Assembly: GCA_963613665.1 (NCBI GenBank)
Contig: CAVEAL010000004.1
Coordinates: 83,134 to 115,133 of the forward strand
DNA from: a bacterium
GTDB taxonomy: Bacteria; Bacillota; Clostridia; Oscillospirales; Oscillospiraceae
DNA length: 32,000 bases
Direction of reading: 5' to 3'
Shown piece after piece: positions 4,698 through 22,531 of this stretch; the stretch's first letter is position 1; the number at the start of each line of letters is the position of its first letter. The notes under the pieces are model-generated. The model had not been told where the DNA came from, ran no database searches, and saw only the letters and a list, made by a program, of their open reading frames with translations. Made by a program: the position numbers and the translations under genes.

Positions 4698-5285
4698 TTG
4701 AATATCAAAGAATCGAGTGCTGACACCAAGGAGCGCATAAGATCATGCGCCATAGAGTTGTTTAAAAATAACGGTTACGAAAATGTTACCGTGGTGCAAA
4801 TATGCAAGGCGGTCGGGATCACAAAACGTACATTTTACTATCATTACGAGTCCAAAGAGCAGCTTGTAAGCGGCATTACGGACTATCTCGGCATTAAAGC
4901 CGAGCACTTTGTCGATACGCTGGCGGCACAGCAGACCAATGTCGGCACGCTGTGGGCGCTCATGAGCGTATACAGCATAAACGCAACGGATTATGGTGCG
5001 AATATCATACGCCAGATTTATATCAACCTCGTTCAGGGCAAGAATGAGGGGAAATTTCCGCAGGATATGTACCTGTATAAAACCGTCGTCAAGACTATCA
5101 ACAACGCGAAGCTTGCGGGCGAGATAAGCAATGCCGCCGCCGCGGAGGACATCGCGTTTGCGCTCTATCACGGCTTCCGAAGCGTAACTATCACATGGGC
5201 ATCCGAAGGCGGCGAGTTTGACCTCGTCAGCGCCTTTCGCCAGATATTCATTACGGTGCTCGGCGTAAATGATGTTAATTTTTAA
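4698..5285 (+). CDS. TetR/AcrR family transcriptional regulator
   Basis: 195 aa. TTG start 7 nt after AGGGAGG. N-terminal HTH (ERIRSCAIELFKNNGYENVTVVQICKAVGITKRTFYYHYESKEQL). Divergent from the reductase operon. Confidence 0.9.
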   Translation: MNIKESSADTKERIRSCAIELFKNNGYENVTVVQICKAVGITKRTFYYHYESKEQLVSGITDYLGIKAEHFVDTLAAQQTNVGTLWALMSVYSINATDYGANIIRQIYINLVQGKNEGKFPQDMYLYKTVVKTINNAKLAGEISNAAAAEDIAFALYHGFRSVTITWASEGGEFDLVSAFRQIFITVLGVNDVNF

Positions 5286-5302
5286 ACTAACATTTTTTCA
5301 TG

Positions 5303-5334
5303 ATAACCTCAAAGGCATTTGCCTTTGAGGTTAT
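5303..5334. terminator. 14-bp perfect-stem hairpin between the convergent TetR and ADH-SDR genes
   Basis: ATAACCTCAAAGGC-attt-GCCTTTGAGGTTAT followed by TTG on the + strand. Lies 18 nt after the TetR stop and about 60 nt after the SDR stop on the other strand. Confidence 0.6.
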
Positions 5335-5392
5335 TTGCTGTCAGAGCGTATCGGAGCTCTGCTTTGGCTCGGCTGTCGGATAACGAGAGCCG

Positions 5393-7249: not shown

Positions 7250-7288
7250 CACTTTACGTCCTTTCCGGGTTTTATAACCGAGATTTTT

Positions 7289-9238
7289 TCAGTTCGTCTG
7301 CATGCCGGCATAGAAGCCGCCTCTTATTGCCTTGCCGCTTTTACCAACCTCAACGCAGTCGCCGACGCAGATCAGCTTCTTGTTATATTTCTGCTTCAGC
7401 TTGTCGGTAAGGTCGGTATTGGGAGCCATTCCGAAGGCCGCAATGACAGCATCCGCCTCAATAAACTCGGTTTCGCCCTGCTCATTGATGACCTCGACGC
7501 CGTTGGCCTTGATCTCGGCAACACGGGTATTGCAGCGTGTGACGACGCCGGCCTCCTTGAGGTGTACCTTCAGAGAGTGCTGATTGATGAATACCATGTC
7601 CATGGCAACATCGGACTTCATCTCGATAACGGTGCAGTCCTTGCCATACTCCGTGGCCATTTCGAGCGCGAAGTCCGAGCCGGAAAGGCCGCCGCCGCAT
7701 ATGACGAGCTTCTTTCCTTCTATCGACGAAGGAGCTCTGTGCGCGTCCTTGATATCTATAACATTATCGCCGTGGACGCCGGGGATGGGAGGCAGCACGG
7801 AGTGTGCGCCGGTAGCAGCAATGATCTTGTCGGCTTCGGCGAGCACGGGGCTGTCGATGTTGAGTTCCTGCTTAACGACATTGACGTTGAGCTTCTTCAT
7901 CTGGACCTTATAGTATTCTATAAGCGCCTTGAGGCGTGTTTTGAACTGAGCCTGGGCGGGCAGATTCAAAGTGCCGCCGAGCTCGTCGCGCTCATAAAGA
8001 GTGACCTTATGACCCTTGAGCGCCGCGACGCGCGCAGCCTCCATGCCGCCGGGGCCTCCGCCGATGACGACAACGTTCTTGGGCTCTTCGGTCTTAACGA
8101 TACTGAAAGCGTGCTCCTCGTTTGCCTGGGGGTTGACCGAGCACGAGAGCTTGGAGTAGCGTCCCCAAATGCGGCCGATGCACTCTTCGTTGCAGCGGAT
8201 GCAGGGGCGAACATCCTCTTCGCGGTTTTCCATCAGCTTCTGCGGGAGGTAGGGATCTGCGATGAGGGGGCGGCCCATCATGGCGAAGTCGGCTCTGCCG
8301 GACTCTATAAGGCGCTTTGCGGTCTCGGGAGTATGGTTGCCTGCATTCAGTATCGGCTTATCGGTCGCTTCACGGGCTGTGTCGCAGACATATTCCATGC
8401 ATGCATCTCCGCGGTAGAACGTGGGATAAACAAAATCGGGATGCTCATAGCAGCCGCAGTCAACGTCGAATGCGTCAACTCCGTTTTCGCCGAGGATCTT
8501 GATAAGCCTCTTGCTGTCCTCGAGCGTTCTGCCTCCGGGGATGCGATGATCCATCGAGATGCGGTAGATAACGGGCATGTCGTTGCCCGCACCGCGCTTG
8601 ATCGCCTGCAGTATCTCGATCGCAAAACGTGCTCTGTTCTCGTCGCTTCCGCCATATTCGTCCTCACGCTTGTTCCACAGAGGAGTGAGGAACTGGTCGA
8701 TTATATATCCAACATGACCGTGGACTTCGATCGCGTCATAGCCCGCGTTTGCTGCGATCTCGGCCGCAAGCTGCCATGACTTCATGATGTCCTTGATCTC
8801 CTCGATGGTTAACGGGCGGCACAGGATCTTCGGATTAAACACAGCGGGAACTGCCGACGAGGAGAAGGGAACTCCGCCGCACTGGCTCGGATGGGCATTT
8901 CGACCCGTGCCGCTGGAAAGCTGCGCTATGGCCTTTGCACCGTAGCAATGGATGCGCTCAGTCATGCCGGTCAGGTGCGGGATTATACGCTTGCTGTCGA
9001 AATATGTTCCGTAAATGCCCTGCGCAAGCTTCGGCGTCAGGTATTGGGACGCGGTGATGATCGCGCCGACGCCGCCCTTGGCGCGCTCCTCAAAATATGT
9101 AGCCAGCGTGTCGGACACCGAGCCGTCCATTTGAGCCGCGTATGTGCCCATGGGGCACATGACAAGTCTGTTCTTTATCTCCATTTTTCCTATCGAAAAT
9201 GGAGTGAACAGCACATCAAAGTTAGAATTTTCTTTCAT
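7289..9238 (-). CDS. Second Fe-S flavoenzyme of the 2-enoate reductase / FadH / BaiCD-BaiH family (divergent paralog of 2546-4471)
   Basis: The ATG at 9238 follows GGAGGCTAAA. The ORF-track start at 9250 is a TTG that overlaps that RBS. Reads MKENSNFDVLFTPFSIGKMEIKNRLVMCPMGT. Has the 4Fe-4S motif CIRCNEECIGRIWGRYSKLSCSVNP and VVVIGGGPGG. 649 aa. Confidence 0.9.
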   Translation of the reverse strand: MKENSNFDVLFTPFSIGKMEIKNRLVMCPMGTYAAQMDGSVSDTLATYFEERAKGGVGAIITASQYLTPKLAQGIYGTYFDSKRIIPHLTGMTERIHCYGAKAIAQLSSGTGRNAHPSQCGGVPFSSSAVPAVFNPKILCRPLTIEEIKDIMKSWQLAAEIAANAGYDAIEVHGHVGYIIDQFLTPLWNKREDEYGGSDENRARFAIEILQAIKRGAGNDMPVIYRISMDHRIPGGRTLEDSKRLIKILGENGVDAFDVDCGCYEHPDFVYPTFYRGDACMEYVCDTAREATDKPILNAGNHTPETAKRLIESGRADFAMMGRPLIADPYLPQKLMENREEDVRPCIRCNEECIGRIWGRYSKLSCSVNPQANEEHAFSIVKTEEPKNVVVIGGGPGGMEAARVAALKGHKVTLYERDELGGTLNLPAQAQFKTRLKALIEYYKVQMKKLNVNVVKQELNIDSPVLAEADKIIAATGAHSVLPPIPGVHGDNVIDIKDAHRAPSSIEGKKLVICGGGLSGSDFALEMATEYGKDCTVIEMKSDVAMDMVFINQHSLKVHLKEAGVVTRCNTRVAEIKANGVEVINEQGETEFIEADAVIAAFGMAPNTDLTDKLKQKYNKKLICVGDCVEVGKSGKAIRGGFYAGMQTN

Positions 9239-9258
9239 TTTAGCCTCCAAATAATATT

Positions 9259-9287
9259 TTGACTTTCTTATAAAATTTATATATACT
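9259..9287 (+). promoter_or_regulatory. Candidate sigma-A promoter for the second TetR gene
   Basis: TTGACT (9259-9264), 17-nt spacer, TATACT (9282-9287). Lies 46 nt upstream of the ATG at 9333. Confidence 0.4.
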
Positions 9288-9332
9288 CAAGGCATATATC
9301 TAAGTGAGCTTATCCGACAGGAGGAATAAAGC

Positions 9333-9935
9333 ATGGCCGGAAGAAGAAATAAAAACGAGCATCCGGGGGATACCAAGGAAAAGATCCGCAGCACCGCCAT
9401 GGAGCTTTTCAAGGAGTATGGTTATGATGAAACATCCATCCCCATGATATGCGAGAAGGCCGGAGTATCGAAAACCACCCTGCACTACTACTTCCCCAAA
9501 AAACAGGATCTGTTTTTTGATATGAAAAACAATTTCGAGGAACTGTACAGCAGCAGCTTTTACAGAATCGTAGAACAGGAGACCTTTACCAAGCAGATAT
9601 GGGAGGTCTTCAATATCATGTGCGAGGGCGATATGTTCTACGGCGTGGGCATCAACCGGCTTTATTTCATTCAGCGCCTGAAGGAACATGATCAGCGCGG
9701 CTTTATCGAGAATATATATCACAAGAAAATGCTGTCCGCGGTCATACGCTCAGCGCAGAAAGCCGAGCAGATACTCAACATGGCAGAGCCCGATAAGCTC
9801 AGCGAGGCGCTCTCATACGCTATGCGCGGCGTCATACTGACATGGTCCATCGAAGACGGTACCATCGACCTTGTCGAATACGCGAAAAATGTAGTGCGTA
9901 CTATAATCATGCCTGCGCCCGGATATGATATCTGA
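9333..9935 (+). CDS. TetR/AcrR family transcriptional regulator
   Basis: 200 aa. AGGAGGAATAAAGC precedes the ATG. HTH region KEKIRSTAMELFKEYGYDETSIPMICEKAGVSKTTLHYYFPKKQDL. Divergent from the reductase gene at 7289-9238. Confidence 0.9.
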   Translation: MAGRRNKNEHPGDTKEKIRSTAMELFKEYGYDETSIPMICEKAGVSKTTLHYYFPKKQDLFFDMKNNFEELYSSSFYRIVEQETFTKQIWEVFNIMCEGDMFYGVGINRLYFIQRLKEHDQRGFIENIYHKKMLSAVIRSAQKAEQILNMAEPDKLSEALSYAMRGVILTWSIEDGTIDLVEYAKNVVRTIIMPAPGYDI

Positions 9936-10162
9936 AACCCATAGAACCGCAGTACTAATTTTATTGAATGTAGGCTCTATAATTATAGAACTATAATACA
10001 TTAAGATATTATTTTGTCAATATGCATTTTTTGTTTTAGGTACATTGCACAATAGTTCCTACCCCGCAATTGTGCACAAACACCATGTTGCTTGGAGTCT
10101 TTTTGCTTTTTTTGAATGCGTGCAGACATTTTTGCGATAAATATCAAGTTTGTTGCTGTTAG

Positions 10163-11036
10163 CACGCAAAACAAAATTTGCCCCGAGTAAATATTCACTT
10201 TTTCCCCTGCGTTGATAGAACGCGAGATGATTGGGAAGGTCTCGTTGCTGCGCAGGATTGTCTCCCGAACGATGAAATGAAAGATAAATTCGGCGCACAA
10301 TACCGCGTCCTGAACCGCGTCTGGAATGCACTCTCCCGGATAGCGGCCTGAACCCTTTTAAAGCAAACTACAGGTGGCTTTCTAAAGTTTATGACTCTAT
10401 CCGCCCGACTGATGAGCGAGGAAAATTGATCTGGCAGCATTTGGCCCCAAAACGATTCAGCTTGTGCATGACAATATCTCGGTCGAGTCTGTTGAAACGG
10501 ATGAAGAAATCCTCGCGATGGATGCGGATATCATCCAAAAATTCATTGAGGGCGACGCTAATGCGGAGAAGAAACGTCGTAAGATAGAAATCGACCTCGC
10601 TGCTATCATACTAAAACACCCAGATGATCCGCGTTTTATTGCGCTGGGAGCCAGAATGGAAAAGCTGCGTGAGGAGCATGAGGCGGGGCCTCTTTCCAGC
10701 ATGGAATTTTTGAAGGCACTACTCGAACTGGAGATAGATGTTGCACATGTTGAAAAGAAAGTCGTTCCAGAAGAGAAGGTAGATAAAGGAAAGGCTGCGC
10801 TGAGGTCTTTGTTCCAAAACGTTAAGAATGATAGCACGCCAATCATTGTCGAGAGAATTGTAGTAAATGATATCGATGGTATTGTGAAAATTGTCCGTTT
10901 CCCCGGTTGGCAGAACACCTCAACAGGGAGAAAAGAAGTTAGTAAAAATCTACGTGACGTTATCATGCGCAAATACAGGATAAGGGATCAGGAGGTATTT
11001 GCAAAAGCATATAGCTAGGTTGAGCAATACTATTGA
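10163..11036 (+). pseudogene. hsdR: Decayed 3' remnant of a type I restriction enzyme R subunit gene (hsdR C-terminal, DUF3387-like region)
   Basis: The reading is spread over three frames: ..FFPCVDRTRDDWEGLVAAQDCLPNDEMKDKFGAQYRVLNRVWNALS / PDSGLNPFKANYRWLSKVYDSIRPTDERGKLIWQHLAP / KTIQLVHDNISVESVETDEEIL...RFPGWQNTSTGRKEVSKNLRDVIMRKYRIRDQEVFAKAYS*VEQYY*. There are -1 shifts at the C-run 10335-10337 and the A-run 10449-10452, an in-frame TAG at 10160-10162 and a premature TAG at 11016-11018. No helicase domains and no hsdM or hsdS are present. Confidence 0.7.
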
Positions 11037-11055
11037 TATTCTTTTATCGCAGAAC

Positions 11056-11088
11056 AACACCTCGCAGTCACAACGGTTGCGAGGTGTT
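11056..11088 (+). terminator. Hairpin after the hsdR remnant
   Basis: AACACCTCGCA-11 nt loop-TGCGAGGTGTT followed by TC. The U-tract is weak. Confidence 0.4.
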
Positions 11089-11180
11089 TCTGCAAGTGTG
11101 GATTTTATGAATTATAGGTTACGGGGACATGCTGCGCTTTTGCAACCATGAGAAATAATTCTGCCACGCTCATTATACCC

Positions 11181-11209
11181 TTGATTTTGCGGGTATAATA
11201 GGGTATAAT
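11181..11209 (+). promoter_or_regulatory. Candidate sigma-A promoter of the AAA+ ATPase gene, overlapped by an inverted repeat
   Basis: TTGATT (11181-11186), 17-nt spacer, TATAAT (11204-11209). The 9-bp inverted repeat ATTATACCC (11172-11180) / GGGTATAAT (11191-11199) brackets the -35 element. GGGTATAAT is directly repeated at 11201-11209. Confidence 0.45.
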
Positions 11210-11243
11210 TCTGCATAGAATAGTATCTCACAGGAGGTGCGCT

Positions 11244-13028
11244 ATGGAGTTATCTGAAATGCAGGCACGGGTGACAGAGTTGGAGCAGCAGATTTCTGCT
11301 TTACCAGCCGGTTCTATTACGAAGAAAACCGTCAATGGTAAGGAGTACTTTTACCATCGTTGGACGGAGAACAAGAAACGGCGGGAGAAGTATATTCCTG
11401 CGGATGAACTGGAAAATATCCGCGCTCAAATCGAGCGGCGGAAGGAACTGGAGCAGGAACTGAAGGCACTGAAGAAGCAGCTGCCCAAAACAAAAACCGT
11501 GGACATTTCCGCATTTACCACCAACATCCGCACCGGCGAGGCGCTGCGTTCCTTTGCGGCGTCTGTTCGCGGCTATCGCAGGCGCGAGTGCTTCCGGCAA
11601 CTGCACGATTTTGTCTACAGTGATCCGCAGGATAAGGTATTCATCCTCTACGGTCTGCGCAGGACGGGAAAAACCACCATGATCCGCCAAATTTTTGCGG
11701 AGATGAGCGACGCTGAGTTGTCGAAAGCGGTATTCATTCAAATCACCGCAAGAGATACGCTGGCAGATGTAAACCGCGACCTCAAGGCACTGGAAGCGCA
11801 GGGCTTCCGCTATGTGTTCCTCGATGAAGTGACACTGATGGAGGATTTCATCGAGGGCGCAGCGCTGTTTTCTGACGTGTTTGCGGCCTGCGGCATGAAG
11901 ATCGTGCTCTCCGGCACGGACTCGCTGGGCTTCCTCTTCACAGAGGACGAGCAGCTCTATGACCGCTGTATCCTGCTGCACACCACCTTCATCCCCTACC
12001 GGGAGTTTGAATCTGTCCTCGGCATTCACGGCATCGACGAGTATATCCGCTACGGCGGCACCATGAGCCTTGGCGGCGTCCACTACAACGAGACTTCCAC
12101 GTTTGCCAGCAAGGAAAGCGCCGACGAATACGTGGACACGGCTATCGCCCGCAACATCCAGCACTCTCTGCGCTGCTATAAGTATGAGGGGCATTTCCGC
12201 CATCTGCGGGATTTGTACGACAAGAGTGAGTTGACCAGCGCCATCAACCGCGTGGTGGAGGACATCAACCACCGCTTCACGCTGGAGGTGCTGACGCAGG
12301 ATTGGAAATCTCATGACCTTGGCATTTCTGCCAGCAATCTGCGTCGGGATCGGGAGAATCCTACGGACATCCTCGACCGTATTGACCTTGCGGCTGTCAC
12401 CGATAGTCTGCGAAAGCTGCTGGAGATCCGCAACAAGGCAGAGCAGAGCGTAGAACTGGACGATGTTCATGCAGCGGAGATCAAAGAATATCTGGATTTG
12501 CTTGACCTGACGCGGGAGATCGATGTGCTGCACCTGCCGGATGTCAGCACGAAGTCCAGCCGCACGGTGATTGCGCAGCCAGGTCTTCGGTATGCGCAGG
12601 CGGATGCACTGATCCGCAGTCTGCTGCTGGATGAAACGTTCAGTGCGCTGTCTCTGACGGAGCGCACCGCCGTGCAGGAGCGTATCCTGACCGAGATCAA
12701 AGGGCGTATGTTGGAGGACATCGTCCTGTTGGAAACCAAGCTGGCGAACCCTAAGAAGCAGGTCTTTGTCCTGCAATTTCCCGTGGGCGAATTTGATATG
12801 GTGGTGTTTGACACGGAAGCGGGCTCCTGCCGGATTTTCGAGATCAAGCACAGTGAAGAAGCCGTTCCGCAGCAGTATCGCCATCTGATCGATGAACAAA
12901 AATGCGCCCAGACCGAGCACCGCTACGGTTCGATCACCGGCAAGTTTGTCCTCTACCGTGGGGAAAGCCAAGTCATAGACGGCATTCAGTACCAGAACGT
13001 GGAAGAATATCTGCGAAACCTTGTATGA
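11244..13028 (+). CDS. AAA+ ATPase (COG1373 / AAA_14 + DUF4143-type) with N-terminal coiled coil and a PD-(D/E)xK-like C-terminal domain
   Basis: 594 aa. AGGAGGTGCGCT precedes the ATG. Walker A YGLRRTGKTT and Walker B RYVFLDEV. C-terminal motif EFDMVVFD...CRIFEIKHS (D..ExK). N-terminal KKTVNGKEYFYHRWTENKKRREKYI followed by a coiled coil. Confidence 0.85.
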   Translation: MELSEMQARVTELEQQISALPAGSITKKTVNGKEYFYHRWTENKKRREKYIPADELENIRAQIERRKELEQELKALKKQLPKTKTVDISAFTTNIRTGEALRSFAASVRGYRRRECFRQLHDFVYSDPQDKVFILYGLRRTGKTTMIRQIFAEMSDAELSKAVFIQITARDTLADVNRDLKALEAQGFRYVFLDEVTLMEDFIEGAALFSDVFAACGMKIVLSGTDSLGFLFTEDEQLYDRCILLHTTFIPYREFESVLGIHGIDEYIRYGGTMSLGGVHYNETSTFASKESADEYVDTAIARNIQHSLRCYKYEGHFRHLRDLYDKSELTSAINRVVEDINHRFTLEVLTQDWKSHDLGISASNLRRDRENPTDILDRIDLAAVTDSLRKLLEIRNKAEQSVELDDVHAAEIKEYLDLLDLTREIDVLHLPDVSTKSSRTVIAQPGLRYAQADALIRSLLLDETFSALSLTERTAVQERILTEIKGRMLEDIVLLETKLANPKKQVFVLQFPVGEFDMVVFDTEAGSCRIFEIKHSEEAVPQQYRHLIDEQKCAQTEHRYGSITGKFVLYRGESQVIDGIQYQNVEEYLRNLV

Positions 13029-13035
13029 CAAAACC

Positions 13036-13070
13036 GCCGCCCCGACTGAAAAATCGGAGCGGCTGTTTTT
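13036..13070 (+). terminator. Rho-independent terminator of the ATPase gene
   Basis: GCCGCCCCGA-ctgaaaaa-TCGGAGCGGC (one mismatch) followed by TGTTTTT. Starts 8 nt after the stop. Confidence 0.65.
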
Positions 13071-13520
13071 ACGATACATCTTGTCATATGACAAACCGTG
13101 GCGTAAAATAAGCTTGACGTATGACAAGTAGCAATGCGCAAAAATCGTGAGGCGAGAATGCACGAATGCGGTTGATGGCGGAAATGCATAATGTCCCAGA
13201 TAGCACCCATCGCTCATTTCATCAATCATATTTTCAGCTTGCATGAGCGATGCCCGCAAAACTGCATCATTTAGGGTGCAAAAGCCTCTGTTTTTTCCTC
13301 TCAGACCGCTGCAAGCAGGCGGGCGTGGATGTTTTCCTATGGACTTCATCCGAGAGGCAAAACGGAGGCTTTTTTCATGGAAAACGACACTTTTCAGAAA
13401 CGTTGAGGTGCTTATTTTTTCTCAGAAATTTTTACAGATTCTTTCCTCGGCACCTTTTCAAATGGATTCCAATCCGTTATAATATATCTACCAACCTAAC
13501 GAATAACGCGAGGTGCCGTC

Positions 13521-15230
13521 ATGAAAACGAAAGATACGCCGAAGCAATATGTCATCTATTCCCGCAAGTCCAAATTTACCGGGAAGGGCGAAAGTATAGA
13601 GAACCAGATCGAGCTGTGCCGCAAGTACATTGCCATGCACTTTGGCGAGGATGCGGCGGAAAACGCGCTGGTGTATGAGGACGAGGGCTTTTCCGGCGGC
13701 AATCTGGAGCGCCCGCAGTTCAAGAAAATGATGAAGGACTCACAGAAGATCGAATTTGCGGCCATTGTGGTCTACCGTCTCGACCGCATCAGCCGCAACA
13801 TCGGTGACTTTGCAAAGCTCATTGAGGACCTGGACGACCGGCACATTGACTTCATTTCCATCCGGGAGCAGTTCGACACGTCATCCCCTATGGGTCGAGC
13901 GATGATGTATATCGCGTCGGTGTTCTCTCAGCTGGAGCGGGAGACCATTGCGGAGCGTATCCGGGACAATATGCACGAGCTGTCCAAGACCGGGCGCTGG
14001 CTGGGCGGTACGACGCCCACCGGCTACGCCTCGGAAAGCCTGTCCAGCGTGACGGTGGACGGTAAGGTGAAGAAAGCCTGTAAGCTCAAGCCCATCCCGG
14101 AGGAAATTCAGCTGGTCAAAACGATTTTCTCTGTGTTCATGGAGACCGGCTCTCTCAGCAAGACCGACCAGTACCTGCTGGAGCACCGCTGCGTCACGAA
14201 GCGCGGCAAACAGTTCACACGCTTTGCCATCCGGGGCATTCTGACCAATCCGGTCTATATGATTGCCGATGAGACGGCGTATCAGTATCTGAAAGAAAAT
14301 AATGTTGACCTGTTTGCCGAGCGCTCGGAGTTCGACAGCGAGCACGGCATCATGGCGTATAACCGCACCCTTCAGCGCCCCGGCAAGGCGAACCAGATCC
14401 GCCCGATGGAGGAATGGATCGTGGCGGTGGGCAGGCATCCCGGCATCATTGCAGGCAGCGACTGGGTACAGGTGCAGTCCATGCTGGACGTGAACAAATC
14501 CAAAAGCTACCGCAGACCGCGCAGTAATGTGGCGCTGCTGTCCGGCCTTCTGCGGTGCGGCGAATGCGGCGATTATATGCGCCCGAAGCTGACCAACCGC
14601 CGCACGGCGGACGGCGAACTGATCTACACCTACATGTGCTCCACCAAGGAGCGCAGCCACGGCACCGTCTGCGGCATGAAAAACTGCAATGGCAACACGC
14701 TGGACGCCAAAATCATCGAGGAGATCCGCAAGCTGTCCGCCGACAAGGAGACCCTTGCCAAGCTGCTGGCGCAGACCAAGAAGGTCATCAGCGGCAACAA
14801 GGAGGGTTACGACGCGGAGCTGGCGCTGCTGAAAGAGAAGCACGCGGAAACGGAGGACCGCATCAAGCGGCTGGTGGAATCCCTGTCCGTTGCCAGCGAG
14901 ACCTCTGCCAAATACGTCATGGAGCAGATCGACGAATTGCATCAGGAGAGCGAGACCCAGCAGGCAAGGCTTTCTGAGCTGGAGGCGCTGACCGAACAGA
15001 GCCGGATGCTGCATCAGGAGTTTGCCTTCCATCAGGAAATGATCGAGTCGTTTGCCAATGCGGTGGATTCGGCAACGCTGGAGGAAAAGCGACGCTTGCT
15101 GCGGACCATCGTCAAGAAAGTGGTCTGGGACGGCAAAAATGCCTATGTGTACCTGTTTGCAGAGGACGGAGAGGCGGATTTGCCCCCTGTTGAGCAACCT
15201 ATGTTTCCACCAGGAGAGGATAGCGAATGA
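13521..15230 (+). CDS. Large serine recombinase (SpoIVCA-like by context)
   Basis: 569 aa. Resolvase-type catalytic domain (YVIYSRKSKF, ENQIELC, VVYRLDRISRN, SVFSQLERETIAERI), a recombinase domain, a Cys-rich zinc ribbon (CGECGDYMRPK...YMCSTKERSHGTVCGMKNC) and a coiled-coil tail. GAGGTG RBS. Directly abuts the sigK fragment. Confidence 0.95.
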   Translation: MKTKDTPKQYVIYSRKSKFTGKGESIENQIELCRKYIAMHFGEDAAENALVYEDEGFSGGNLERPQFKKMMKDSQKIEFAAIVVYRLDRISRNIGDFAKLIEDLDDRHIDFISIREQFDTSSPMGRAMMYIASVFSQLERETIAERIRDNMHELSKTGRWLGGTTPTGYASESLSSVTVDGKVKKACKLKPIPEEIQLVKTIFSVFMETGSLSKTDQYLLEHRCVTKRGKQFTRFAIRGILTNPVYMIADETAYQYLKENNVDLFAERSEFDSEHGIMAYNRTLQRPGKANQIRPMEEWIVAVGRHPGIIAGSDWVQVQSMLDVNKSKSYRRPRSNVALLSGLLRCGECGDYMRPKLTNRRTADGELIYTYMCSTKERSHGTVCGMKNCNGNTLDAKIIEEIRKLSADKETLAKLLAQTKKVISGNKEGYDAELALLKEKHAETEDRIKRLVESLSVASETSAKYVMEQIDELHQESETQQARLSELEALTEQSRMLHQEFAFHQEMIESFANAVDSATLEEKRRLLRTIVKKVVWDGKNAYVYLFAEDGEADLPPVEQPMFPPGEDSE

Positions 15231-15597
15231 AATACTCATGTACTTTCGCAGTCAGAAGAAGACAATGGGGGATGTGAGCCTGTCGGATGTGCTCGACACT
15301 GACGGAGATGGCAACAGTCTGTCGCTCATGGATGTTCTGTCGCAGGGCGACGAGATGAGTGAGCGAATAGGAGAACTTGAGCTGTGCGGAAGACTGCGCG
15401 GGCTAATTGACAGCAGCCTTGACGAGCGCGAGGCGATGATCATACGTCTGCGCTACGGGCTTGGCGGCAGCCTGCCCATGACGCAGCGCGAAACTGCCGG
15501 TATCTGCAAAATAAGCCGCTCGTATGTCAGCCGTCTCGAGAAAAAAGCGCTCGAAAAGCTCAGAGCAGAGCTCGGCGGCGATGAGGACGGAGCATAA
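15220..15597 (+). pseudogene. sigK: 3' segment of a split sporulation sigma-K gene (spoIIIC-like; end of region 2.4 through region 4)
   Basis: Reads IANEILMYFRSQKKTMGDVSLSDVLDTDGDGNSLSLMDVL...[49 protein letters not shown]. It aligns from memory to B. subtilis SigK from [22 protein letters not shown] to the end. There is no sigma region 1.2-2.3 upstream, because that frame is nonsense inside the recombinase gene. A gene caller would probably start at the ATG at 15238. Confidence 0.8.
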
Positions 15598-15662
15598 TTA
15601 TCTTGTATATGCCGTCGGTTTGTGGTAAAATAGCATGAAAAATTCCGGGGAGGTGAGCCTTA

Positions 15663-16454
15663 GTGCGTGTTAAGAAAACGGTGTGGACATTTTTCATGCT
15701 GATAATGACGGCTGTGCTTGTGCTTATCGTCAATTCGCGCGTTCAGCTCACGTCCGAGATAGTTGTCGGCGGGTCGGACTCGGTGTTTGTAAAGACCGAC
15801 AGTCTCGCCGACCCCATGGACGGCTATGAAACATCCGGCAAGGCCTCGCTCGAAAAATACGCGGACCTTGAGTTTCCGACGGTGACAATAACGGACTGGG
15901 AGTATATTCTTATAAACAGCGAAACGCCGGTGAAGTCCTATTCGCCGGAGCTCAAGCAGTTCGGAACGGACGGAGTGTATGTGGATAAGCGCATTATCGA
16001 CAGCCTATCCGAGCTCGTATCGGCGGCGAAGGAAGCGGGCTTTGAGCCTTACATAAGCGTCGGGTACAGATCGTATGCCGACCAGCAGCAGCTTTTTAAC
16101 GAAAAAGCCTCGGAGCTGAGCCGGAACGGCGCGTATACATACGAAGAAGCAAAGAGCATCGCCGCTGAGATCGTGGCAAAGCCCGGCACGAGCGATCACC
16201 AGACCGGTCTTGCCGTCGATATTTTCGACAAGGAGTACGAGGTGCTCGACTACAGCAAGATGGATTCGTCGTTCTTCGACTGGCTTGACGCAAACTGTGC
16301 ACAGTTCGGATTTATAAAGCGCTACCCAAGCAATAAAAAGAGCGTCACGGGCTGGGATGAGCCGTGGCACTACAGATACGTAGGCAAGGATGCCGCCGAG
16401 TTTATCACCGAAAACCGTATGTGCCTCGAAGAATTCGTCGCACACTACAGCTGA
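15663..16454 (+). CDS. D-alanyl-D-alanine carboxypeptidase, peptidase M15B (VanY-like), with N-terminal membrane anchor
   Basis: 263 aa. GTG start after GGGGAGGTG. Motifs SVGYRSYADQQ, SDHQTGLAVDI and EPWHYRYVG. Confidence 0.85.
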   Translation: MRVKKTVWTFFMLIMTAVLVLIVNSRVQLTSEIVVGGSDSVFVKTDSLADPMDGYETSGKASLEKYADLEFPTVTITDWEYILINSETPVKSYSPELKQFGTDGVYVDKRIIDSLSELVSAAKEAGFEPYISVGYRSYADQQQLFNEKASELSRNGAYTYEEAKSIAAEIVAKPGTSDHQTGLAVDIFDKEYEVLDYSKMDSSFFDWLDANCAQFGFIKRYPSNKKSVTGWDEPWHYRYVGKDAAEFITENRMCLEEFVAHYS

Positions 16455-16488
16455 ACAATAAATTGCGGCAGTATGTTTAAAATAATGC

Positions 16489-16517
16489 TTGCAATCACGA
16501 TATTTAGATGGTATTAT
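16489..16517 (+). promoter_or_regulatory. Candidate sigma-A promoter of the rimP-nusA-infB operon
   Basis: TTGCAA (16489-16494), 17-nt spacer, TATTAT (16512-16517), with a TG at the extended -10 position (TGgTATTAT). Confidence 0.5.
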
Positions 16518-16541
16518 AATAAGGTAAGTCAGTAAGCATGC

Positions 16542-16571
16542 AAGAGTGGGTCACAGCCCACTCTTTTTGTT
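16542..16571 (+). terminator. Intrinsic-terminator-like hairpin in the rimP leader (attenuator and/or terminator of the upstream gene)
   Basis: AAGAGTGGG-tcacag-CCCACTCTT followed by TTTTGTT. Lies about 25 nt downstream of the -10 element and 36 nt upstream of the rimP ATG. Confidence 0.55.
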
Positions 16572-16606
16572 GAGCATTTTGCGGATGATAAAATCAGGAG
16601 CATTGT

Positions 16607-17050
16607 ATGAGTAAGATCAGTGACAAGGTTGAGGCACTCGCACGGCCGGTGGTAGAGGAAGAGGGCTGCGAGCTGTGGAGCGTTGAGTATGTAAAAGAGG
16701 CAGGGACGTGGTATCTGCGTGTGTATATCGACAAGGAGGGCGGCGTCGGCATTGCCGACTGCGAGGCGATAAGCCGCAGGCTCGATCCGATACTTGACGA
16801 AGCAGATCCGGTACCCGACAGCTATGTGTTTGAAGTCGGTTCCGCCGGAGCGGAGCGTGAGCTCAGGCGTCCGTCGGATTTCGAGCGCTATATCGGCTCC
16901 GATGTTGAGGTGAAGCTCTATCAGCCCTATGAAGGCAGAAAGACCCTCGTCGGTACGCTCGATAAATACAGCGACGGGAATATAACGGTTTCCGGCGCGG
17001 AGTTTAAGAAAGAACAAGTTGCGCAGGTCAGGCTGCATGTAACCATATAG
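16607..17050 (+). CDS. rimP: Ribosome maturation factor RimP
   Basis: 147 aa. Conserved position upstream of nusA. Reads ELWSVEYVKEAGTWYLRVYIDKEGGV..DCEAISR. AGGAG RBS. Confidence 0.9.
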   Translation: MSKISDKVEALARPVVEEEGCELWSVEYVKEAGTWYLRVYIDKEGGVGIADCEAISRRLDPILDEADPVPDSYVFEVGSAGAERELRRPSDFERYIGSDVEVKLYQPYEGRKTLVGTLDKYSDGNITVSGAEFKKEQVAQVRLHVTI

Positions 17051-17071
17051 AAAAGAAGAGGTATATTGAAA

Positions 17072-18124
17072 ATGAACGCTGAATTTTTTTCTGCAATCGA
17101 AGATCTCGAAAAAGAAAAGGGCATACCCAGAGAATACATGTACGACAAAATAAAGCAGGCCATGCTTGCCGCATTCCGCCGCGATAATCCCGAGTGTGCG
17201 GATAATGTCGATATCCTGCTTGATGAGGACAGAAAGCGCATTGAGATGTATGTCAACAAGGTCGCTGTCGAGCAGGTCGAGGATCCCGCTCTTGAGATAG
17301 ATATCGAGGCCGCGAAGAAGATAACAAAGCGCGCAAAGCCCGGCGATACCATCAAGATCCCCGTGGAGACGAAAAAGTTCGGCCGCATTGCCGCTCAGTC
17401 GGCAAAGCAGGTCATAATCCAGGGCATCCGTGAGGCCGAGCGCGGCATCGTATACGAGGAGTTCACCTCCAAGGAGCATGAGATACTCACGGGCGTTGTC
17501 TCCCGCATCGAGCCGAGGACGGGCAGCGTATCCATCCGTATCAGCTCCAACAGCGAATATACCGAGGCCATGCTCTCGCCTAACGAGAGGATCAAGACCG
17601 AGCCCCTCAAGGAGGGCGACCGCATAAAGGTCTATGTCGTCGAGGTAAGAAATTCCACCAAGGGTCCTCAGGTACTCATAAGCCGCACGCATCCGGGCCT
17701 TGTAAAGCGTCTGTTCGAGCTTGAGGTGCCCGAGATATTCGACGGTACGGTCGAGATAAAGTCCATTGCCCGCGAAGCCGGAAGCCGCACGAAGATGGCG
17801 GTCTGGTCCACCGATCCCGATGTCGATCCCATCGGCTCCTGCGTAGGCCCCAAGGGCGGCCGCGTTGCGAGCATAGTCGATGAGCTCGGCGGCGAGAAGA
17901 TAGACATTATTAAATACAGCGAGATCCCCGAGGAGTACATTGCCGCGGCACTCGCTCCCAGCGAGGTCGTCAGCGTCACAATGCTCGAGGACGGTAAGAG
18001 CTGCCGTGTCGTAGTTCCCGACGGCCAGCTTTCGCTTGCCATCGGCAAAGAGGGACAGAATGCGCGTCTGGCCGCAAGACTGACGGGATTTAAGATCGAT
18101 ATAAAGCCCGAATCGGAGGCATAA
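17072..18124 (+). CDS. nusA: Transcription termination/antitermination factor NusA
   Basis: MNAEFFSAIEDLEKEKGI is a typical NusA N-terminus, followed by S1 and two KH domains (GSCVGPKGGRV, AIGKEGQNARLA). The ATG at 17072 is preferred over the track's TTG at 17066 because of RBS spacing. Confidence 0.95.
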   Translation: MNAEFFSAIEDLEKEKGIPREYMYDKIKQAMLAAFRRDNPECADNVDILLDEDRKRIEMYVNKVAVEQVEDPALEIDIEAAKKITKRAKPGDTIKIPVETKKFGRIAAQSAKQVIIQGIREAERGIVYEEFTSKEHEILTGVVSRIEPRTGSVSIRISSNSEYTEAMLSPNERIKTEPLKEGDRIKVYVVEVRNSTKGPQVLISRTHPGLVKRLFELEVPEIFDGTVEIKSIAREAGSRTKMAVWSTDPDVDPIGSCVGPKGGRVASIVDELGGEKIDIIKYSEIPEEYIAAALAPSEVVSVTMLEDGKSCRVVVPDGQLSLAIGKEGQNARLAARLTGFKIDIKPESEA

Positions 18125-18143
18125 ACGAAAGGAGGCAGCCGCA

Positions 18144-18410
18144 GTGCAGAAGAAAATACCGATGAGGCAGTGTCTGGGCTGCCGCGAGATGAAGCCGAAG
18201 CGCGAGCTTATCCGTGCGGTAAAATCGCCGGACGGGGAAGTGAGCCTTGATTTTAAGGGCAAGATGCCCGGCAGGGGCGCATATCTGTGCCCGAACGGCG
18301 AGTGCCTTAGAAAAGCAATGAAGTCCAGAGCGCTTGAGCGAGCCTTCTCCGTGCAGATACCCGAGGAGATATATGAAGCCTTACAGAGGCAGATGGAGGC
18401 GAGCCAATGA
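18144..18410 (+). CDS. ylxR: YlxR/RnpM family (DUF448) RNA-binding protein
   Basis: 88 aa. GTG start 8 nt after AGGAGG. KKIPMRQCLGCREMKPKRELIR and GRGAYLC motifs. Conserved position after nusA. Confidence 0.85.
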   Translation: MQKKIPMRQCLGCREMKPKRELIRAVKSPDGEVSLDFKGKMPGRGAYLCPNGECLRKAMKSRALERAFSVQIPEEIYEALQRQMEASQ

Positions 18411-18838
18411 GAGAGAAAGCCTTGAATCTGCTCGGACTCATGCGGAAAGCGAATGCTCTGAGCATCGGCGAGGAGGATACGGGCTCGGCTGTGAGAGAAC
18501 ATGCCGCAAAGCTTGTGATCGTTGCGTCGGATGCCTCGGATAACGCAAAAAAGCGCGCCGCAGGCTACATGCACGGGAGCAAAGCGCCGCTGATAACGGT
18601 TCCGTTTACGAAGGAAGATATATCAGAGCACGTCGGAAAAAGCGGCTGCTCGATGGCGGCCGTGTGTGATATCGGCTTTGCCGATGCCTTCATGAAGCTG
18701 CTGTGCGGTATATCGCCAGAGGAATACGGAGACGCCGCGCAGACGATACAAAGACGCGCCCAAATCGGCAAAAAGCGAAAAAACGACAGCACCAGGCAGA
18801 ATAACAAGAGGACAGGTAAAAGGAGGAGCAATGCATGA
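18407..18838 (+). CDS. ylxQ: L7Ae/YlxQ family ribosomal-protein-like RNA-binding protein with a basic C-terminal extension
   Basis: 143 aa. [16 protein letters not shown]...[17 protein letters not shown]. Overlaps the ylxR stop (ATGA) and the infB start. Confidence 0.8.
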
Positions 18839-21180
18839 GCATGATTAATAAATACAGAGTACACGAGGTAGCAAAGGATTTTAACACCACATCCAAGGTG
18901 ATAACTCAGATATTAACGGACTATGCCACGACTCCGAAAAACCACATGCAGGTTCTTGAGAACAACGAACTTGACGTGATATTCGAATATCTGACCCAGC
19001 ATAATCAGGCCGGCAGTCTGGCCGATATATTTGCGTCCGCTCCCAAGACGGAGAGTGCAAAGCCTGCAGAGAAAAAGCAGGGAGGAAAGCCCGCAGCGGC
19101 GCCCTCTTCCGATAAGGCGGCAGCTCCCGCGCAGCCTGCGCCCGTAAAGAAGGAAAAGGAAAACAAGCCGCATGTACCGCGCCAGGTCGCGGAAAAGCGC
19201 GTTGTCGATACCCGCGGCAGCGCGGCGGTGAACATAGCCAAGTACGACGAGAAGTTTGACAACATGGCCGGCGACAAGAGCCGTAACCGTGACCGTGACC
19301 GCAAGGGCGGCAAGGAGAAGATCGTCAACAAGGCAAAGCAGCGCCAGCAGGGGCAGGCGGCATCGGCAAAGCGCCGTCAGGAAGAGCGCGACAAGATGCA
19401 GAAGCTCCAGCTTGAGATCGCAAAGAAGCAGCAGCTCAAGGTCATGATCCCGGACGAGATCAATGTCGGCGAGCTTGCGTCGAGAATGAAAAAATCCGCC
19501 GGCGAGGTCATAAAGCGCCTGATAAAGCTCGGCGTTTTCGCCTCCGTCTCCGATGTTGTCGATTACGACACCGCAGCGCTCGTTGCAATGGAGTTCGGCT
19601 GCAAGGTCGAAAAGGAGGTCGTCGTCACCGTTGAGGAGAAGCTTATCGACGATCACGAGGACAGCGCGGATGAGCTGATCGGACGTGCGCCGGTTGTCGT
19701 CGTCATGGGTCACGTTGACCACGGCAAGACCTCGCTTCTTGACTATATCCGCCATGCAAACGTCGCCTCCGGTGAGGCCGGCGGCATAACGCAGCATATA
19801 GGCGCGTACACCGTTGAGATAAACGGAAGCCCCATAACCTTCCTCGATACCCCGGGCCATGAGGCCTTTACCTCGATGCGTGCCCGCGGCGCGATGGTAA
19901 CGGATATCGCCATCCTCGTCGTCGCCGCCGACGACGGCATCATGCCGCAGACGGTCGAGAGCATAAATCACGCAAAGGCCGCGGGAATACCGCTTGTTGT
20001 CGCCATCAACAAGATGGACACCGTCGGTGCAAATCCCGAGCGCATAAAGCAGCAGCTTACCGAATACGATATCGTCCCCGAGGAGTGGGGCGGTGAGACC
20101 ATCATATGCCCGATCTCCGCCAAAACCGGCGAGGGCATTGACGCGCTGCTTGAAAACCTCGTCATTCTGGCAGAGGTCCAGGAGCTCAAGGCAAATCCGA
20201 ACCGCGCCGCAAAGGGCACCGTCATAGAGGCAAGACTCGACAAGGGCCGCGGCCCGATCATGACCGTTCTCGTGCAGAACGGAACGCTCAAGCTCGGCGA
20301 TATCATCATTGCAGGCACGGCTGTAGGCCGCGTGCGCACCATGATAAACGATAAGGGCGTGCGCATCACCGAGGCAGGCCCCTCCGTTCCGGTCGAGATA
20401 TCCGGCATGTCCGAGGTGCCGAGCGCAGGTGATACCTTCAACGCCGTCGCCGATGAGCGCATGGCCCGTGAGCTCGTCGAGGAGCGCAAGACCCAGCAGA
20501 AGAACGCAGCCTTCGGCAGCAGCAAGAAGGTCAGCCTCGAGGATCTGTTCAGTCAGATCCAGGCCGGTGAGATGAAGACTCTCAACATCATCGTAAAGGC
20601 CGACGTTCAGGGCTCGGCCGAGGCGGTCAAGGCTTCGCTTGAAAAGATAACAAACGACGAGGTGCGCGTAAAGGTCATCCACAGCGCAGTCGGCGCTATC
20701 AGCGAGTCCGACGTTATGCTCGCTGCGACCTCCGGTGCTATAATCGTCGGCTTCAATGTCCGTCCGGACAATGCCGCACGCGACAGCGCCGCGCGCGCGA
20801 ACGTCGATATGCGCATGTACCGCGTTATCTACGACTGCATCAACGAGATAGAGGCTGCCATGAAGGGCATGCTCGCACCGAAGTTCGAGGAGGTCATCAT
20901 CGGCCACGCCGAGGTGCGCGAGACCTATAAGGTCTCCAAGGTCGGCACCGTTACGGGCTGCTATGTCCTTGACGGCAAGATACAGCGCGGCTGCTCGGTC
21001 CGTGTCCTGCGCGACAATATCGTTATCCACGAGGGCGAGCTTGCGTCGCTGCGCCGCTTCAAGGACGACGTCAAGGAAGTCGCCAGCGGCTACGAATGCG
21101 GCATGCAGGTCGAGAAATTCAACGACATCAAGGTCGGCGACGTTATCGAATGCTTTGTTATGCAGCAGGTAAAGGTCTGA
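18835..21180 (+). CDS. infB: Translation initiation factor IF-2
   Basis: 781 aa. Low-complexity K/A/E-rich N-terminal region, then the GTPase domain [24 protein letters not shown] and NKMD. AGGAGG RBS. Confidence 0.97.
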
Positions 21181-21239
21181 TAAAAAACTATTTCGGGCGG
21201 TCGTAAGACCGCCCGATGCACAGATACAGGAGGAGAAAA

Positions 21240-21602
21240 ATGCCTTCAAATAAACTGGCAAGGACAAATGACGATATTCAGCTTGTCATGAGCAAGCTTC
21301 TGCGCGAGATCAAGGATCCGCGCGTAAATCAGGGAATGATAAGCGTAACGCGCGTCGAAACGACGGGCGATATGCGCTACTGCAAGATATGGCTGTCCGT
21401 TATGGGGCTCGAAAACGAAAAGGAATTCAAAAAAGGGCTCAAATCGGCATCCGGCTGGCTGCGCAGGGAGCTCGGAAACTCGCTCAAGCTGCGCAATACA
21501 CCGGAGCCCGTTTTTGAGTTAGACCGCAGCATCGAATACGGTGCGCATATAAACGAGCTTATAAGCAGCCTTGACATTAAGCACGACGAGGATGTGGAAT
21601 GA
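21240..21602 (+). CDS. rbfA: Ribosome-binding factor A
   Basis: The ATG at 21240 follows AGGAGGAGAAAA, whereas the track start at 21216 has no RBS. Reads RTNDDIQLVMSKLLREIKDPRV..ISVTRVETTGDMRYCKIW. 120 aa. Confidence 0.9.
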   Translation: MPSNKLARTNDDIQLVMSKLLREIKDPRVNQGMISVTRVETTGDMRYCKIWLSVMGLENEKEFKKGLKSASGWLRRELGNSLKLRNTPEPVFELDRSIEYGAHINELISSLDIKHDEDVE

Positions 21603-22531
21603 ATATTAAAGAATGCGCCGCGTGGCTCAGAGAGCACGACAATATCCTGCTGCTGACTCATGCCCGGCCCGACGGCGATACACTCGGCGGAGCTGCCGCC
21701 CTGTGCTCTGCACTGCGCAGATCGGGCAAAAATGCCGCGTTATACAACAATACGGATATAACGCCGAAATACTTTAAATATGTAAAGGACTATATAACGG
21801 AAGGCTTTGACTATGACTGCACCGTCGCCGTCGATATCGCCGAGGCATATATGCTGCCGCACGGCTTTGAAGGGCAGGTAGACGTCTGCATAGACCACCA
21901 TCCGTCAAATTCGCATTATGCCGAACAGCTTCTGCTCGACGGCAGAAAAGCCTCCTGCGGCGAGATAGTGCTTCAGGTAATAAAGGAGCTGTGCGGAACG
22001 CTTACGGCAGACGAGGCAAGCCTTTTGTACATGGCAGTATCCACCGACTGCGGCTGCTTCCGCTATGCAAACGTGACCAGTGAGACCTTTGCCGCGGCCG
22101 GCGAGCTCCTCAGCTTCGGCGCGGATGCGCAAAGACTCAACTTTGAGCTGTTCCGTCAGGTGTCACGTGCACGCATGACGCTTGAGGGAAGCATGCTTTC
22201 CGGACTCAGGTATTTCTTTGACGGCAAGGTCGTCGCCGCAACGGTGACGCGCAAAATGATGCTCGATGCTGCCGCTTCGGATAACGACTGCGACGATATC
22301 GCCGGTATACCCGGCAGGGTCGAGGGCTGCGTCGTGAGCCTTGTTATACGCGAGTCTGGCGAAAACAGGAGCAGGGTCTCTGTAAGGTCGCACGAGTGCT
22401 TTGACAGCAGTGCACTCTGTGATCGCTTCGGCGGCGGCGGCCATAAGATGGCGGCAGGCTGCGTGATAGAGGCATCGACCGAGGAAACGCTGAGTATTCT
22501 CTTGTCTGCGATAGGTGAGGTACTCGGATGA
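21599..22531 (+). CDS. DHH/DHHA1 family phosphoesterase (NrnA-like oligoribonuclease/pAp phosphatase)
   Basis: 310 aa. Motifs HARPDGDTLGG, DHH (CIDHHPSN) and GGGGHKMAAG. ATGA overlap with rbfA. Confidence 0.8.
   Translation: MNIKECAAWLREHDNILLLTHARPDGDTLGGAAALCSALRRSGKNAALYNNTDITPKYFKYVKDYITEGFDYDCTVAVDIAEAYMLPHGFEGQVDVCIDHHPSNSHYAEQLLLDGRKASCGEIVLQVIKELCGTLTADEASLLYMAVSTDCGCFRYANVTSETFAAAGELLSFGADAQRLNFELFRQVSRARMTLEGSMLSGLRYFFDGKVVAATVTRKMMLDAAASDNDCDDIAGIPGRVEGCVVSLVIRESGENRSRVSVRSHECFDSSALCDRFGGGGHKMAAGCVIEASTEETLSILLSAIGEVLG

Follow-up and report, generated by a model that had tools for sequence, protein, structure and literature searches.

The locus described here raises the question whether a sporulation sigma factor gene that begins in its middle is a dead remnant or one half of a gene that is still put together. 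In the window, by which we mean the whole stretch of 32,000 nucleotides from contig CAVEAL010000004.1 of an Oscillospiraceae bacterium, the gene of a large serine recombinase (LSR) runs directly into the 3' part of the sigma-K gene sigK. Judged from the sequence, an element appears to interrupt sigK between the codons for ...SRCIEN and EILM..., with its own LSR gene at the right edge and an AAA_14 ATPase gene upstream of it. Positions 15216-15240 are almost certainly the attR junction of this sigK-intervening LSR element, and the full functional reading, a split sigK that is developmentally rejoined in this strain, is probable. The first-pass annotation had proposed the right junction of a skin-like element at this place, and the proposal is borne out by sister strains, which share attR and its flank, carry the 5' half about 12-23 kb upstream and give an in-frame union of the two halves.

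The junction and the two halves of sigK

The frame 15220-15597 opens 11 nt before the LSR stop and reads IANEILMYFRSQKK.... It matched positions 111-229 of 235 in the NCBIfam SigK model NF004471 (116.6 bits, 1e-33), compared with 92 bits for SigE and at most 45 bits for SigF, SigG and SigB, and Pfam Sigma70_r4 was found in it at 2e-13. The hidden Markov model placement that had been proposed earlier was thus carried out, and the fragment scored highest as SigK among these five sigma factors, in agreement with the preference for SigK over SigE in the first-pass annotation. The fragment was also aligned to SigK of B. subtilis, from about residue 111 onward. This start is probably close to the B. 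subtilis split point, and the two insertion sites may be equivalent. No sigma similarity was found in the same frame upstream of 15220, which had been described as nonsense. Sigma regions 1.2-2.3, reported as absent, and likewise 2.4 were found nowhere in the 32 kb by motif scan or by tblastn at E<=10. A search of the window with the attL pattern, allowing 2 mismatches, gave 3 matches against 1.2 expected; besides attR itself these were two matches at chance level, and neither attL nor a 5' sigK half was found in the window by any of these searches.

The window attR reads GAGGATAGCGAATGAAATACTCATG and is composed of a P arm GAGGATAGC (15216-15224), the common core GAATG (15225-15229) and a B' arm AAATACTCATG (15230-15240). 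In the related loci L005, L014, L179 and L181 attL reads TGCAT(C/T)GAGAATGCTATACT, and the attL used for the reconstruction of attB is TGCATCGAGAATGCTATACT. Crossing attL with attR within GAATG yields TGC ATC GAG AAT GAA ATA CTC ATG, which translates in frame to CIENEILM, the sequence of intact SigK in related species (L025-L031 and protein clusters P0148, P0169 and P0170). The predicted rejoined attB junction is TGCATCGAGAATGAAATACTCATG and the predicted attP junction is GAGGATAGCGAATGCTAT, also given as GAGGATAGCGAATGCTATACT; the 5' sigK fragment ending ...ASRCIEN is expected beside TGCTATACT. The P arm and the P' arm GCTATCCTC are reverse complements. An attP-like junction GAGGATAGCGAATGCTATCCTC is present where two elements abut, with perfectly complementary 9-bp arms around GAAT, and for this reason the crossover dinucleotide is likely AA at 15226-15227. 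The core GAATG is common to attL (from related loci), attR, the rebuilt attB and the attP-like junctions, and the comparison of both junctions suggested in the first-pass annotation could be completed with attL of related loci, defining attL, attR, the core and the dinucleotide. Since this comparison places the crossover at AA, one detail of that annotation has to be changed. The identity of the fragment as SigK stands, while the codons for its first two residues, I and A (15220-15225), belong to the P arm of the element, and the sigK-derived sequence starts at AAT, 15226. The LSR stop TGA (15228-15230) lies inside attR, where the LSR frame overlaps the sigK frame by 11 nt; it consists of crossover core and the first sigK base and is formed only when the element is integrated. 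More distant hosts, for example L001 and L002, whose sigK fragments show 54-61% protein identity, share the junction sequence GAGGATAGCGAATGA(A/G)AT.

Six loci from one ENA project (L008-L013) are 96.5% identical in DNA to window 13200-25597 and have the same LSR-sigK3'-VanY-rimP-nusA order. They are treated here as the same species as the window, because of this identity and because the LSR, the sigK 3' fragment and the downstream genes are the same. The same-species 5' half of sigK (P0268, 138 aa) is situated downstream of uvrB-polA-tsaD-radC in L014-L021, L179 and L181, where it is followed by attL and then by the left module of the element. P0268 and the 3' half P0121 each list the same longest contig size, 79,309 bp, and the two entries are taken as one contig, NODE_247. 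Overlap of L179, on a 153-kb contig, with L010 (97.5% identity over 8 kb) gave a complete element of ~12.0 kb from attL to attR, and piecing together L014 and L008 gave an element of ~22.6 kb, which is an estimate since the middle Wadjet genes were not fetched. The composite of the sister-strain 5' half and the window 3' half scored 273.4 bits on NF004471, above the cut-off of 252, and 212 bits as SigE; under the stricter TIGR02846 equivalog model it reached 269.5 against a cut-off of 298.65. The N-terminus of SigK in this lineage reads as hydrophobic and pro-sequence-like.

With the first 110 residues of an intact SigK from a relative as query, the best 120 matches were all truncated 5' fragments of 112-173 aa, and most of the best C-terminal SigK matches were fragment-sized and without region 2. 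Among the matches listed for GTDB representatives, the best one to the same-species 5' fragment was 88% identical and had an intact sigK; the nearest species representatives listed, L025 and L026, both possess intact sigK. The L025 contig (CAVFCI010000010.1) is titled 'Hallerella sp.', a name which we take to belong to Fibrobacterota. It carries an intact Clostridia-type sigK with an N-terminal half 88% identical to that of the window species, and the contig is probably mis-binned. A more distant LSR (L079, 39% identity) occupies the same site with the same layout, in an element of 8.1 kb.

A few sigK forms deviate from this pattern. In the close relative L185 (1018-1662 and 8791-10534) sigK is intact at CIEN|EILM and split at a second site in region 4.2 by an unrelated element of ~8.7 kb; besides AIPR, Fic and a tyrosine integrase this element encodes an LSR of 525 aa, only 21% identical to that of the window; the last 20 sigK codons follow the 525-aa LSR, and VanY comes next. 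The split fragment P0241 has 110 N-terminal residues identical to those of the L185 sigK protein, so that a single species apparently harbours two different elements which intervene in sigK. P0169 was considered as proof of an empty site in a split-form species and rejected, as it is intact at this position and interrupted at region 4.2 by the different element. P0153 is a SigK without 19 residues around the att site (…GIRL|KKTMGD…) and P0145 is a glycosyltransferase N-terminus fused to SigK; both may be products of imprecise excision or metagenome assembly chimeras.

The recombinase gene showed Pfam matches to Resolvase (7e-34), Recombinase (5e-18) and Zn_ribbon_recom (3e-12) in this order, confirming the three domains named in the first-pass annotation, and PHROG family phrog_95 (integrase) matched it at 6e-111. 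Structures matched by its N-terminal domain are those of SPbeta SprA (YokA) and the TP901-1 integrase. YSRKS, the motif with the nucleophile, is readable in the sequence, as are DRISR and ERE, and residues ~410-530 appear to form a coiled coil according to their heptad-rich sequence. With the domain order and the nucleophilic serine present, the open reading frame (ORF) is that of an intact integrase-type LSR. The best named NCBIfam matches (CcrB, XisF and CcrC) were far under their cut-offs, and the earlier label 'SpoIVCA-like' may be kept as a functional analogy only. An exact-sequence look-up of the LSR protein returned no record. Its homologues count in thousands, many of them 94-97% identical and situated in sister and related loci, and the few with a source name are labelled Dysosmobacter, Oscillibacter or Clostridia. 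Among LSRs of phages and plasmids the nearest reach 35-47% identity; those from phages (phage HM T, TPELB_ph1 and CP51) show 35-40% and the closest from C. difficile plasmids ~40%. The promoter stretch of the LSR gene is conserved in all related loci (window, L001, L002, L003, L007 and L008). Long antisense ORFs at 11301-13349, 13881-15239, 16529-18574 and 18913-21267 were discarded as shadow ORFs; two were tested and gave no family match.

Table 1. Features of the window, with their positions, strands and the basis of assignment.
Feature	Position	Strand	Basis and remarks
Metabolic gene cluster	1-9935	.	Pfam; element interior or chromosomal DNA juxtaposed by rearrangement
SDR	339-1085	-	Pfam
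MFS	1089-2531	-	Pfam
OYE/pyr-redox	2546-4642	-	Pfam
TetR	4698-5285	+	Pfam
ADH-SDR fusion, 619 aa	5393-7252	-	Pfam
OYE/pyr-redox	7289-9250	-	Pfam
TetR	9333-9935	+	Pfam
AT-rich non-coding spacer, 257 bp	9936-10192	.	GC ~0.44; breakpoint between metabolic cluster and hsdR remnant
hsdR pseudogene, last ~280 codons of type I restriction R subunit	10193-11033	+	tblastn; two frameshifts
Left edge of conserved right-end module	11153-11243	+	Homology start; holds ATPase promoter
Sigma-70-like promoter TTGATT-17-TATAAT	11181-11209	+	Promoter scan; upstream of ATPase gene
AAA_14/DUF6788 ATPase, 594 aa	11244-13028	+	Pfam AAA_14 1e-10; DUF6788+AAA_14 precomputed on orthologues
Sigma-70-like promoter TTTTCA-17-TATAAT	13455-13483	+	Promoter scan; 38 nt upstream of LSR start
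Large serine recombinase (LSR), 569 aa	13521-15230	+	Pfam domains, PHROG, motifs; last codons are attR P arm, stop codon straddles crossover core
attR	15216-15240	.	P arm 15216-15224, core 15225-15229, B' arm 15230-15240
sigK 3' segment (spoIIIC equivalent), 123 codons NEILMYF...GGDEDGA + stop	15226-15597	+	Pfam, NCBIfam; regions 3 and 4
VanY-family carboxypeptidase	15663-16454	+	First gene of right chromosomal flank, outside element

Selection, movement and cargo of the element

The sigK 3' fragment of the window is under purifying selection, with dN/dS (ratio of nonsynonymous to synonymous divergence) of 0.083 against the sister locus L008, 0.15 against the split L002 and 0.086 against the intact L025. 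It differs from the sister strains by 2% at the protein level (dN 0.012, dS 0.15), and owing to this low dN any loss of function in the window strain would be very recent. For the LSR, dN/dS is 0.04-0.07. The sigK fragments stay open across dozens of diverged split lineages. This pattern fits a gene that is still in use, and such use would require rejoining. Between the window and L002 the LSR is far less diverged (dS 0.47, 95% amino acid identity) than the sigK 3' part (dS ~2.5, 61% amino acid identity), so the recombinase module has moved between species recently, to the same landing site each time.

The sister elements have three parts, namely a left module, a variable middle and a right module. 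Precomputed Pfam annotation places an XRE regulator, a 58-aa ORF, RepA_N and NikA/MobC-like genes in the left module, usually along with 86-88 aa and 247-aa ORFs and sometimes with an HTH_26 gene. The middle consists of helicase-nucleases with Wadjet JetABCD, of AIPR-Dcm-Vsr-HNH, of BamHI-type restriction with SNF2 and AIPR, or of AbiEii with AIPR. Within the window species itself (L008-L014 and L179-L181) the cargo is Wadjet with helicase-nucleases, AIPR-Dcm-Vsr-HNH, or DUF5655 with an NgoFVII-helicase and UvrD. In most elements examined the right module is the AAA_14/DUF6788 ATPase plus the LSR, and L007 keeps only a 3' remnant of the ATPase gene. Compared with L001, L003-L006, L008 and L010, the window becomes homologous from 11153-11181 onward in each case. 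The window ATPase gene is 88% identical to that of the sisters, compared with 96.5% for the chromosome, and the window lacks two genes which the sisters carry between ATPase and LSR, one of 272 aa and one of 271 aa, the latter weakly matching DUF2442/HTH_17. The ATPase showed weak PADLOC matches to the candidate defence family PDC-S01 (7e-12).

The window has none of the RepA_N, NikA/MobC-like and XRE genes of the sister left modules. In the precomputed Pfam gene lists of related elements no gene for phage structure or lysis was recognisable, and a PHROG scan of three window proteins gave a match for the LSR only. Together with the AAA_14 and HsdR matches this upholds the earlier description of the visible cargo as an AAA+ ATPase and a dead hsdR, not prophage genes. 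The element is provisionally regarded as mobilizable-like and not prophage-like, the label being provisional because no relaxase was recognised among the sister-element genes in the precomputed Pfam annotation.

Elements of this family also meet each other. In L003-L006 (~11700-13100) the LSR gene faces another LSR gene of 43.5% identity, the two converging across GAGGATAGCGAATGCTATCCTC, and two different recombinase-bearing elements therefore abut tail to tail; the contigs of these loci all end ~1 kb past the convergent junction. L007 (8184-12334) contains a left-truncated element (ATPase 3' remnant, 146-aa ORF, Fic and LSR) with chromosomal genes at its left border and a second, complete element at its right, which makes a tandem with one decayed copy. 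At attP-like junctions the LSR ORF runs in frame for ~24 codons into the left-end XRE gene and forms LSR-HTH ORFs of 747-785 aa, which were observed in at least 13 protein clusters (P0002, P0006 and related) and in L007 at 11700-12400. This read-through could be chance, estimated at ~10% for one lineage, or a state-dependent isoform. A promiscuous element with many target sites, considered on account of 94-96% identical LSRs with differing C-terminal extensions, was largely rejected. The extensions to 747-785 aa arise by read-through over attP-like junctions, where the ORF enters the XRE gene of a neighbouring or circularised element, and that of a 667-aa LSR ORF runs into a second, convergent LSR gene; a minority of other target sites may exist, for instance in the WKMN... 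and YYL* contexts. In another species (L169-L178), whose flank shares 82.5% identity with L014, genes for LysR, a transporter and an acyl-CoA dehydrogenase come directly after the 5' sigK half and a recognisable P' arm AATGCTATACTCAC, and the XRE/RepA_N/MobC module is absent.

The left part of the window is atypical. A 184-aa ORF of the hsdR remnant matched HsdR C-termini of plasmids in tblastn (38-45% identity, E=1e-31), and an HsdR query aligned in three frames with residues 701-748, 745-792 and 783-978, covering ~701-978 of 978. The dead hsdR noted in the first-pass annotation is hence real, with its two frameshifts, and appears to be decayed defence cargo. In the spacer to its left no protein similarity was found. 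The metabolic cluster beyond resembles neither the sigK flanks nor any of the elements fetched. Its homologues, at 72-77% nucleotide identity, are located on large human-gut metagenome contigs with no sigK, LSR, AAA_14 or hsdR nearby, and the SDR protein as query of metagenome contigs retrieved only 72-84% homologues from other taxa. The cluster holds two paralogous pairs, each a TetR gene beside an OYE/pyridine-nucleotide-disulphide reductase gene; homologous human-gut clusters have the same genes in different order, placed between two 443-aa transporters. Window 8387-11246 recurs at 100% identity on three Logan contigs, each of a separate run, and the junctions between TetR, truncated hsdR and ATPase are for this reason no assembly error. 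An exact-match look-up for the metabolic cluster in the sister strains was uninformative, since none of 10 core proteins is identical between the window and these strains. Two readings of the cluster remain, an unusual cargo inside a larger element or a right end parted from its left end by rearrangement.

The right flank is an ordinary chromosomal stretch, with rimP, nusA, ylxR, infB, rbfA, truB, ribF and prfC following VanY. Farther right, window 29159-32000 encodes an Fe-hydrogenase-like protein (561 aa, Fe-S and PAS domains) and then a protein with a SpoIIE/PP2C phosphatase domain, which may form a sensor-phosphatase pair unrelated to the sigK junction.

Proposed rejoining of sigK and the competing explanations

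By analogy with skin of B. subtilis and skinCd of C. difficile, both sigK halves would be silent during growth. The LSR would be made from its conserved sigma-A-type (sigma-70-like) promoter, as CD1231 is in C. difficile. In sporulation a small mother-cell-specific directionality factor, postulated here as analogous to CD1234 and Skr, would let the LSR recombine attL with attR at the AA in GAATG. The element would then leave as a circle and sigK would be rejoined in frame in the terminally differentiated mother cell, and the spore would keep the interrupted copy. We infer the occurrence and the timing of excision, as well as a usable 5' half in this strain. The small ORFs of the left module (58, 67 and 86-88 aa), absent from the window, are obvious candidates for the directionality factor. 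Two other ORFs were dismissed: in related loci 13243-13482 is not maintained as an ORF, and for a Skr-like ORF across the start of the LSR gene the +2 frame, though open, has no conserved start and varying stop positions.

Several points weigh against developmental rejoining in this strain. No conserved candidate for the directionality factor was found near the LSR gene, and a sigma-E or sigma-K promoter was neither sought nor found. Sporulation by this organism is undocumented, and neither an excised circle nor a rejoined sigK of this species has been observed. Within 13.5 kb upstream there is no attL and no 5' sigK, and the same-species elements that could be measured are only ~12 and ~22.6 kb long. 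To the left of the ATPase gene lie the truncated hsdR with its frameshifts and then 10 kb or more of metabolic genes, whose homologues in other taxa are chromosomal; this atypical DNA argues that a rearrangement occurred, by which the left end may have been separated or removed. In the orphan-relic alternative, which the first-pass annotation had already named, a rearrangement inside the element, with its breakpoint at ~9936-10192 within the former hsdR, took away or displaced both the left end and the 5' half; rejoining of sigK would then be impossible, with decay ahead for both the LSR and the 3' fragment. We consider such a relic unlikely. It would account for the truncated hsdR abutting unrelated metabolic genes whose homologues are only of chromosomal type with no element genes nearby, for a gene strand that flips from minus to plus at ~9.3-10.4 kb, and for a junction that is real as judged from the three Logan contigs; L007 provides another left-truncated element joined to chromosomal genes. 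But the slight divergence of the sigK fragment from that of the sisters leaves no room for a long neutral period, and the LSR ORF is intact with dN/dS of 0.04. A simple deletion through the 5' half would also have taken polA, tsaD and uvrB, its flank in the species, and L169-L178, with metabolic genes after attL, tell that such cargo does occur in these elements.

A plain insertional disruption was also weighed, in which a mobilizable element selects the conserved sigK site for its likeness to attP, excision is not developmental, and the host is non-sporulating or relies on sporadic excision. The RepA_N and MobC/NikA-like genes of the left module speak for it, as do a recombinase module that has clearly moved between species, cargo swapped freely within one species, and the tandem or attP-like junctions. 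The LSR promoter is moreover conserved and sigma-70-like, with no recognisable sporulation promoter, but this argument is weak as in C. difficile a constitutive LSR promoter coexists with control by a directionality factor (PMC5025042). In many diverged lineages with a split gene both sigK halves have stayed open, and strong purifying selection acts on them, which is unexpected for a permanently dead gene. The disruption is held to be quite improbable. Least credible of all is an artefact of assembly or binning, with a chimeric junction between recombinase and sigK or between metabolic cluster and element. The window is probably from a metagenome-derived assembly and its exact LSR protein is not on record elsewhere, but many independent assemblies, from this species as well as from others, show the attR junction, and the junctions of TetR, truncated hsdR and ATPase recur at 100% on contigs of three separate runs; an artefact is thus extremely improbable. 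A split sigK rejoined during development remains the preferred reading. It can be extended, as a speculation we think unlikely, to a shared landing pad at CIEN|EILM in gut Oscillospiraceae for horizontally moving mobilizable elements with exchangeable anti-phage defence as their main payload. Developmental excision would make a sporulation-essential gene a safe harbour for them, and the two state-dependent forms of the LSR, with a stop supplied by sigK or with the 747-785 aa XRE read-through, would allow a possible feedback on directionality or regulation.

Comparison with known skin elements and meaning

According to a survey by Galperin and colleagues, skin elements are reported in B. subtilis, C. 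difficile, C. tetani, C. perfringens and twelve further Firmicutes, the 15 surveyed elements are 2.6-48 kb long and share only the LSR gene, and this gene invariably occupies the edge and in most cases directly precedes the 3' sigK fragment (bioRxiv 10.1101/2022.02.25.481979). The layout in the window, with the LSR at the edge and directly upstream of 3' sigK, is exactly alike. That survey appears to deal with complete genomes of named species, whereas the family described here belongs to uncultured Oscillospiraceae and shows cargo turnover within a species and recent transfer between species.

Skin of B. subtilis, with SpoIVCA, Skr and the gene halves spoIVCB and spoIIIC, is alike in a sigK split by an element with an edge LSR and in the in-frame rejoining predicted here. 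It is 48 kb long and prophage-like, whereas the present element has no phage genes. The spoIVCA gene has a sigma-E promoter and skr overlaps its start (PMC6957869); here the LSR promoter is sigma-70-like and no conserved skr-like ORF is present. SkinCd of C. difficile, with the recombinase CD1231 and the directionality factor CD1234, is likewise a small sigK-intervening element (14.6 kb), and its LSR is expressed from a sigma-A-type promoter and controlled through a small mother-cell factor (PMC5025042). This layout would hold here as well. It lies at a different position in sigK and in opposite orientation compared to the present element (PMC5025042, PMC6957869). C. difficile SigK has no pro-sequence, unlike the pro-sequence-like N-terminus of the present lineage. 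The element gin in gerE of Bacillus cereus ATCC 10987 is similar in being non-phage-like, in having a serine recombinase and in splitting a mother-cell sporulation gene, but its target is gerE and it is much smaller (PMC5595907); PhiS63 of Clostridium perfringens is similar as a currently mobile element with sigK as attachment site, but is a complete siphovirus (PMC3442830), whereas the present elements have no recognisable phage structural or lysis genes in their Pfam lists.

The window thus fits the published description of skin elements, and the established picture of skin function is unchanged. What goes beyond it, as far as the literature was checked, is that such elements are pervasive in an uncultured Oscillospiraceae lineage, that defence cargo turns over within a species, and that there is clear evidence for recent interspecies transfer to one site. 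The cargo pattern of Wadjet, restriction-modification, AIPR and AbiEii suggests that skin-like elements can carry defence islands. The LSR and its att sites of ~25 bp with the GAATG core, for which natural attL, attR, attB and attP-like examples are available, form a set of parts for a possible recombinase tool. A split sigK is often mis-annotated as a pseudogene, and a spore-former may then look asporogenous in genome-based predictions for gut bacteria. An uncultured Oscillospiraceae lineage which keeps sigK in two selected halves argues for sporulation and for developmental DNA excision.

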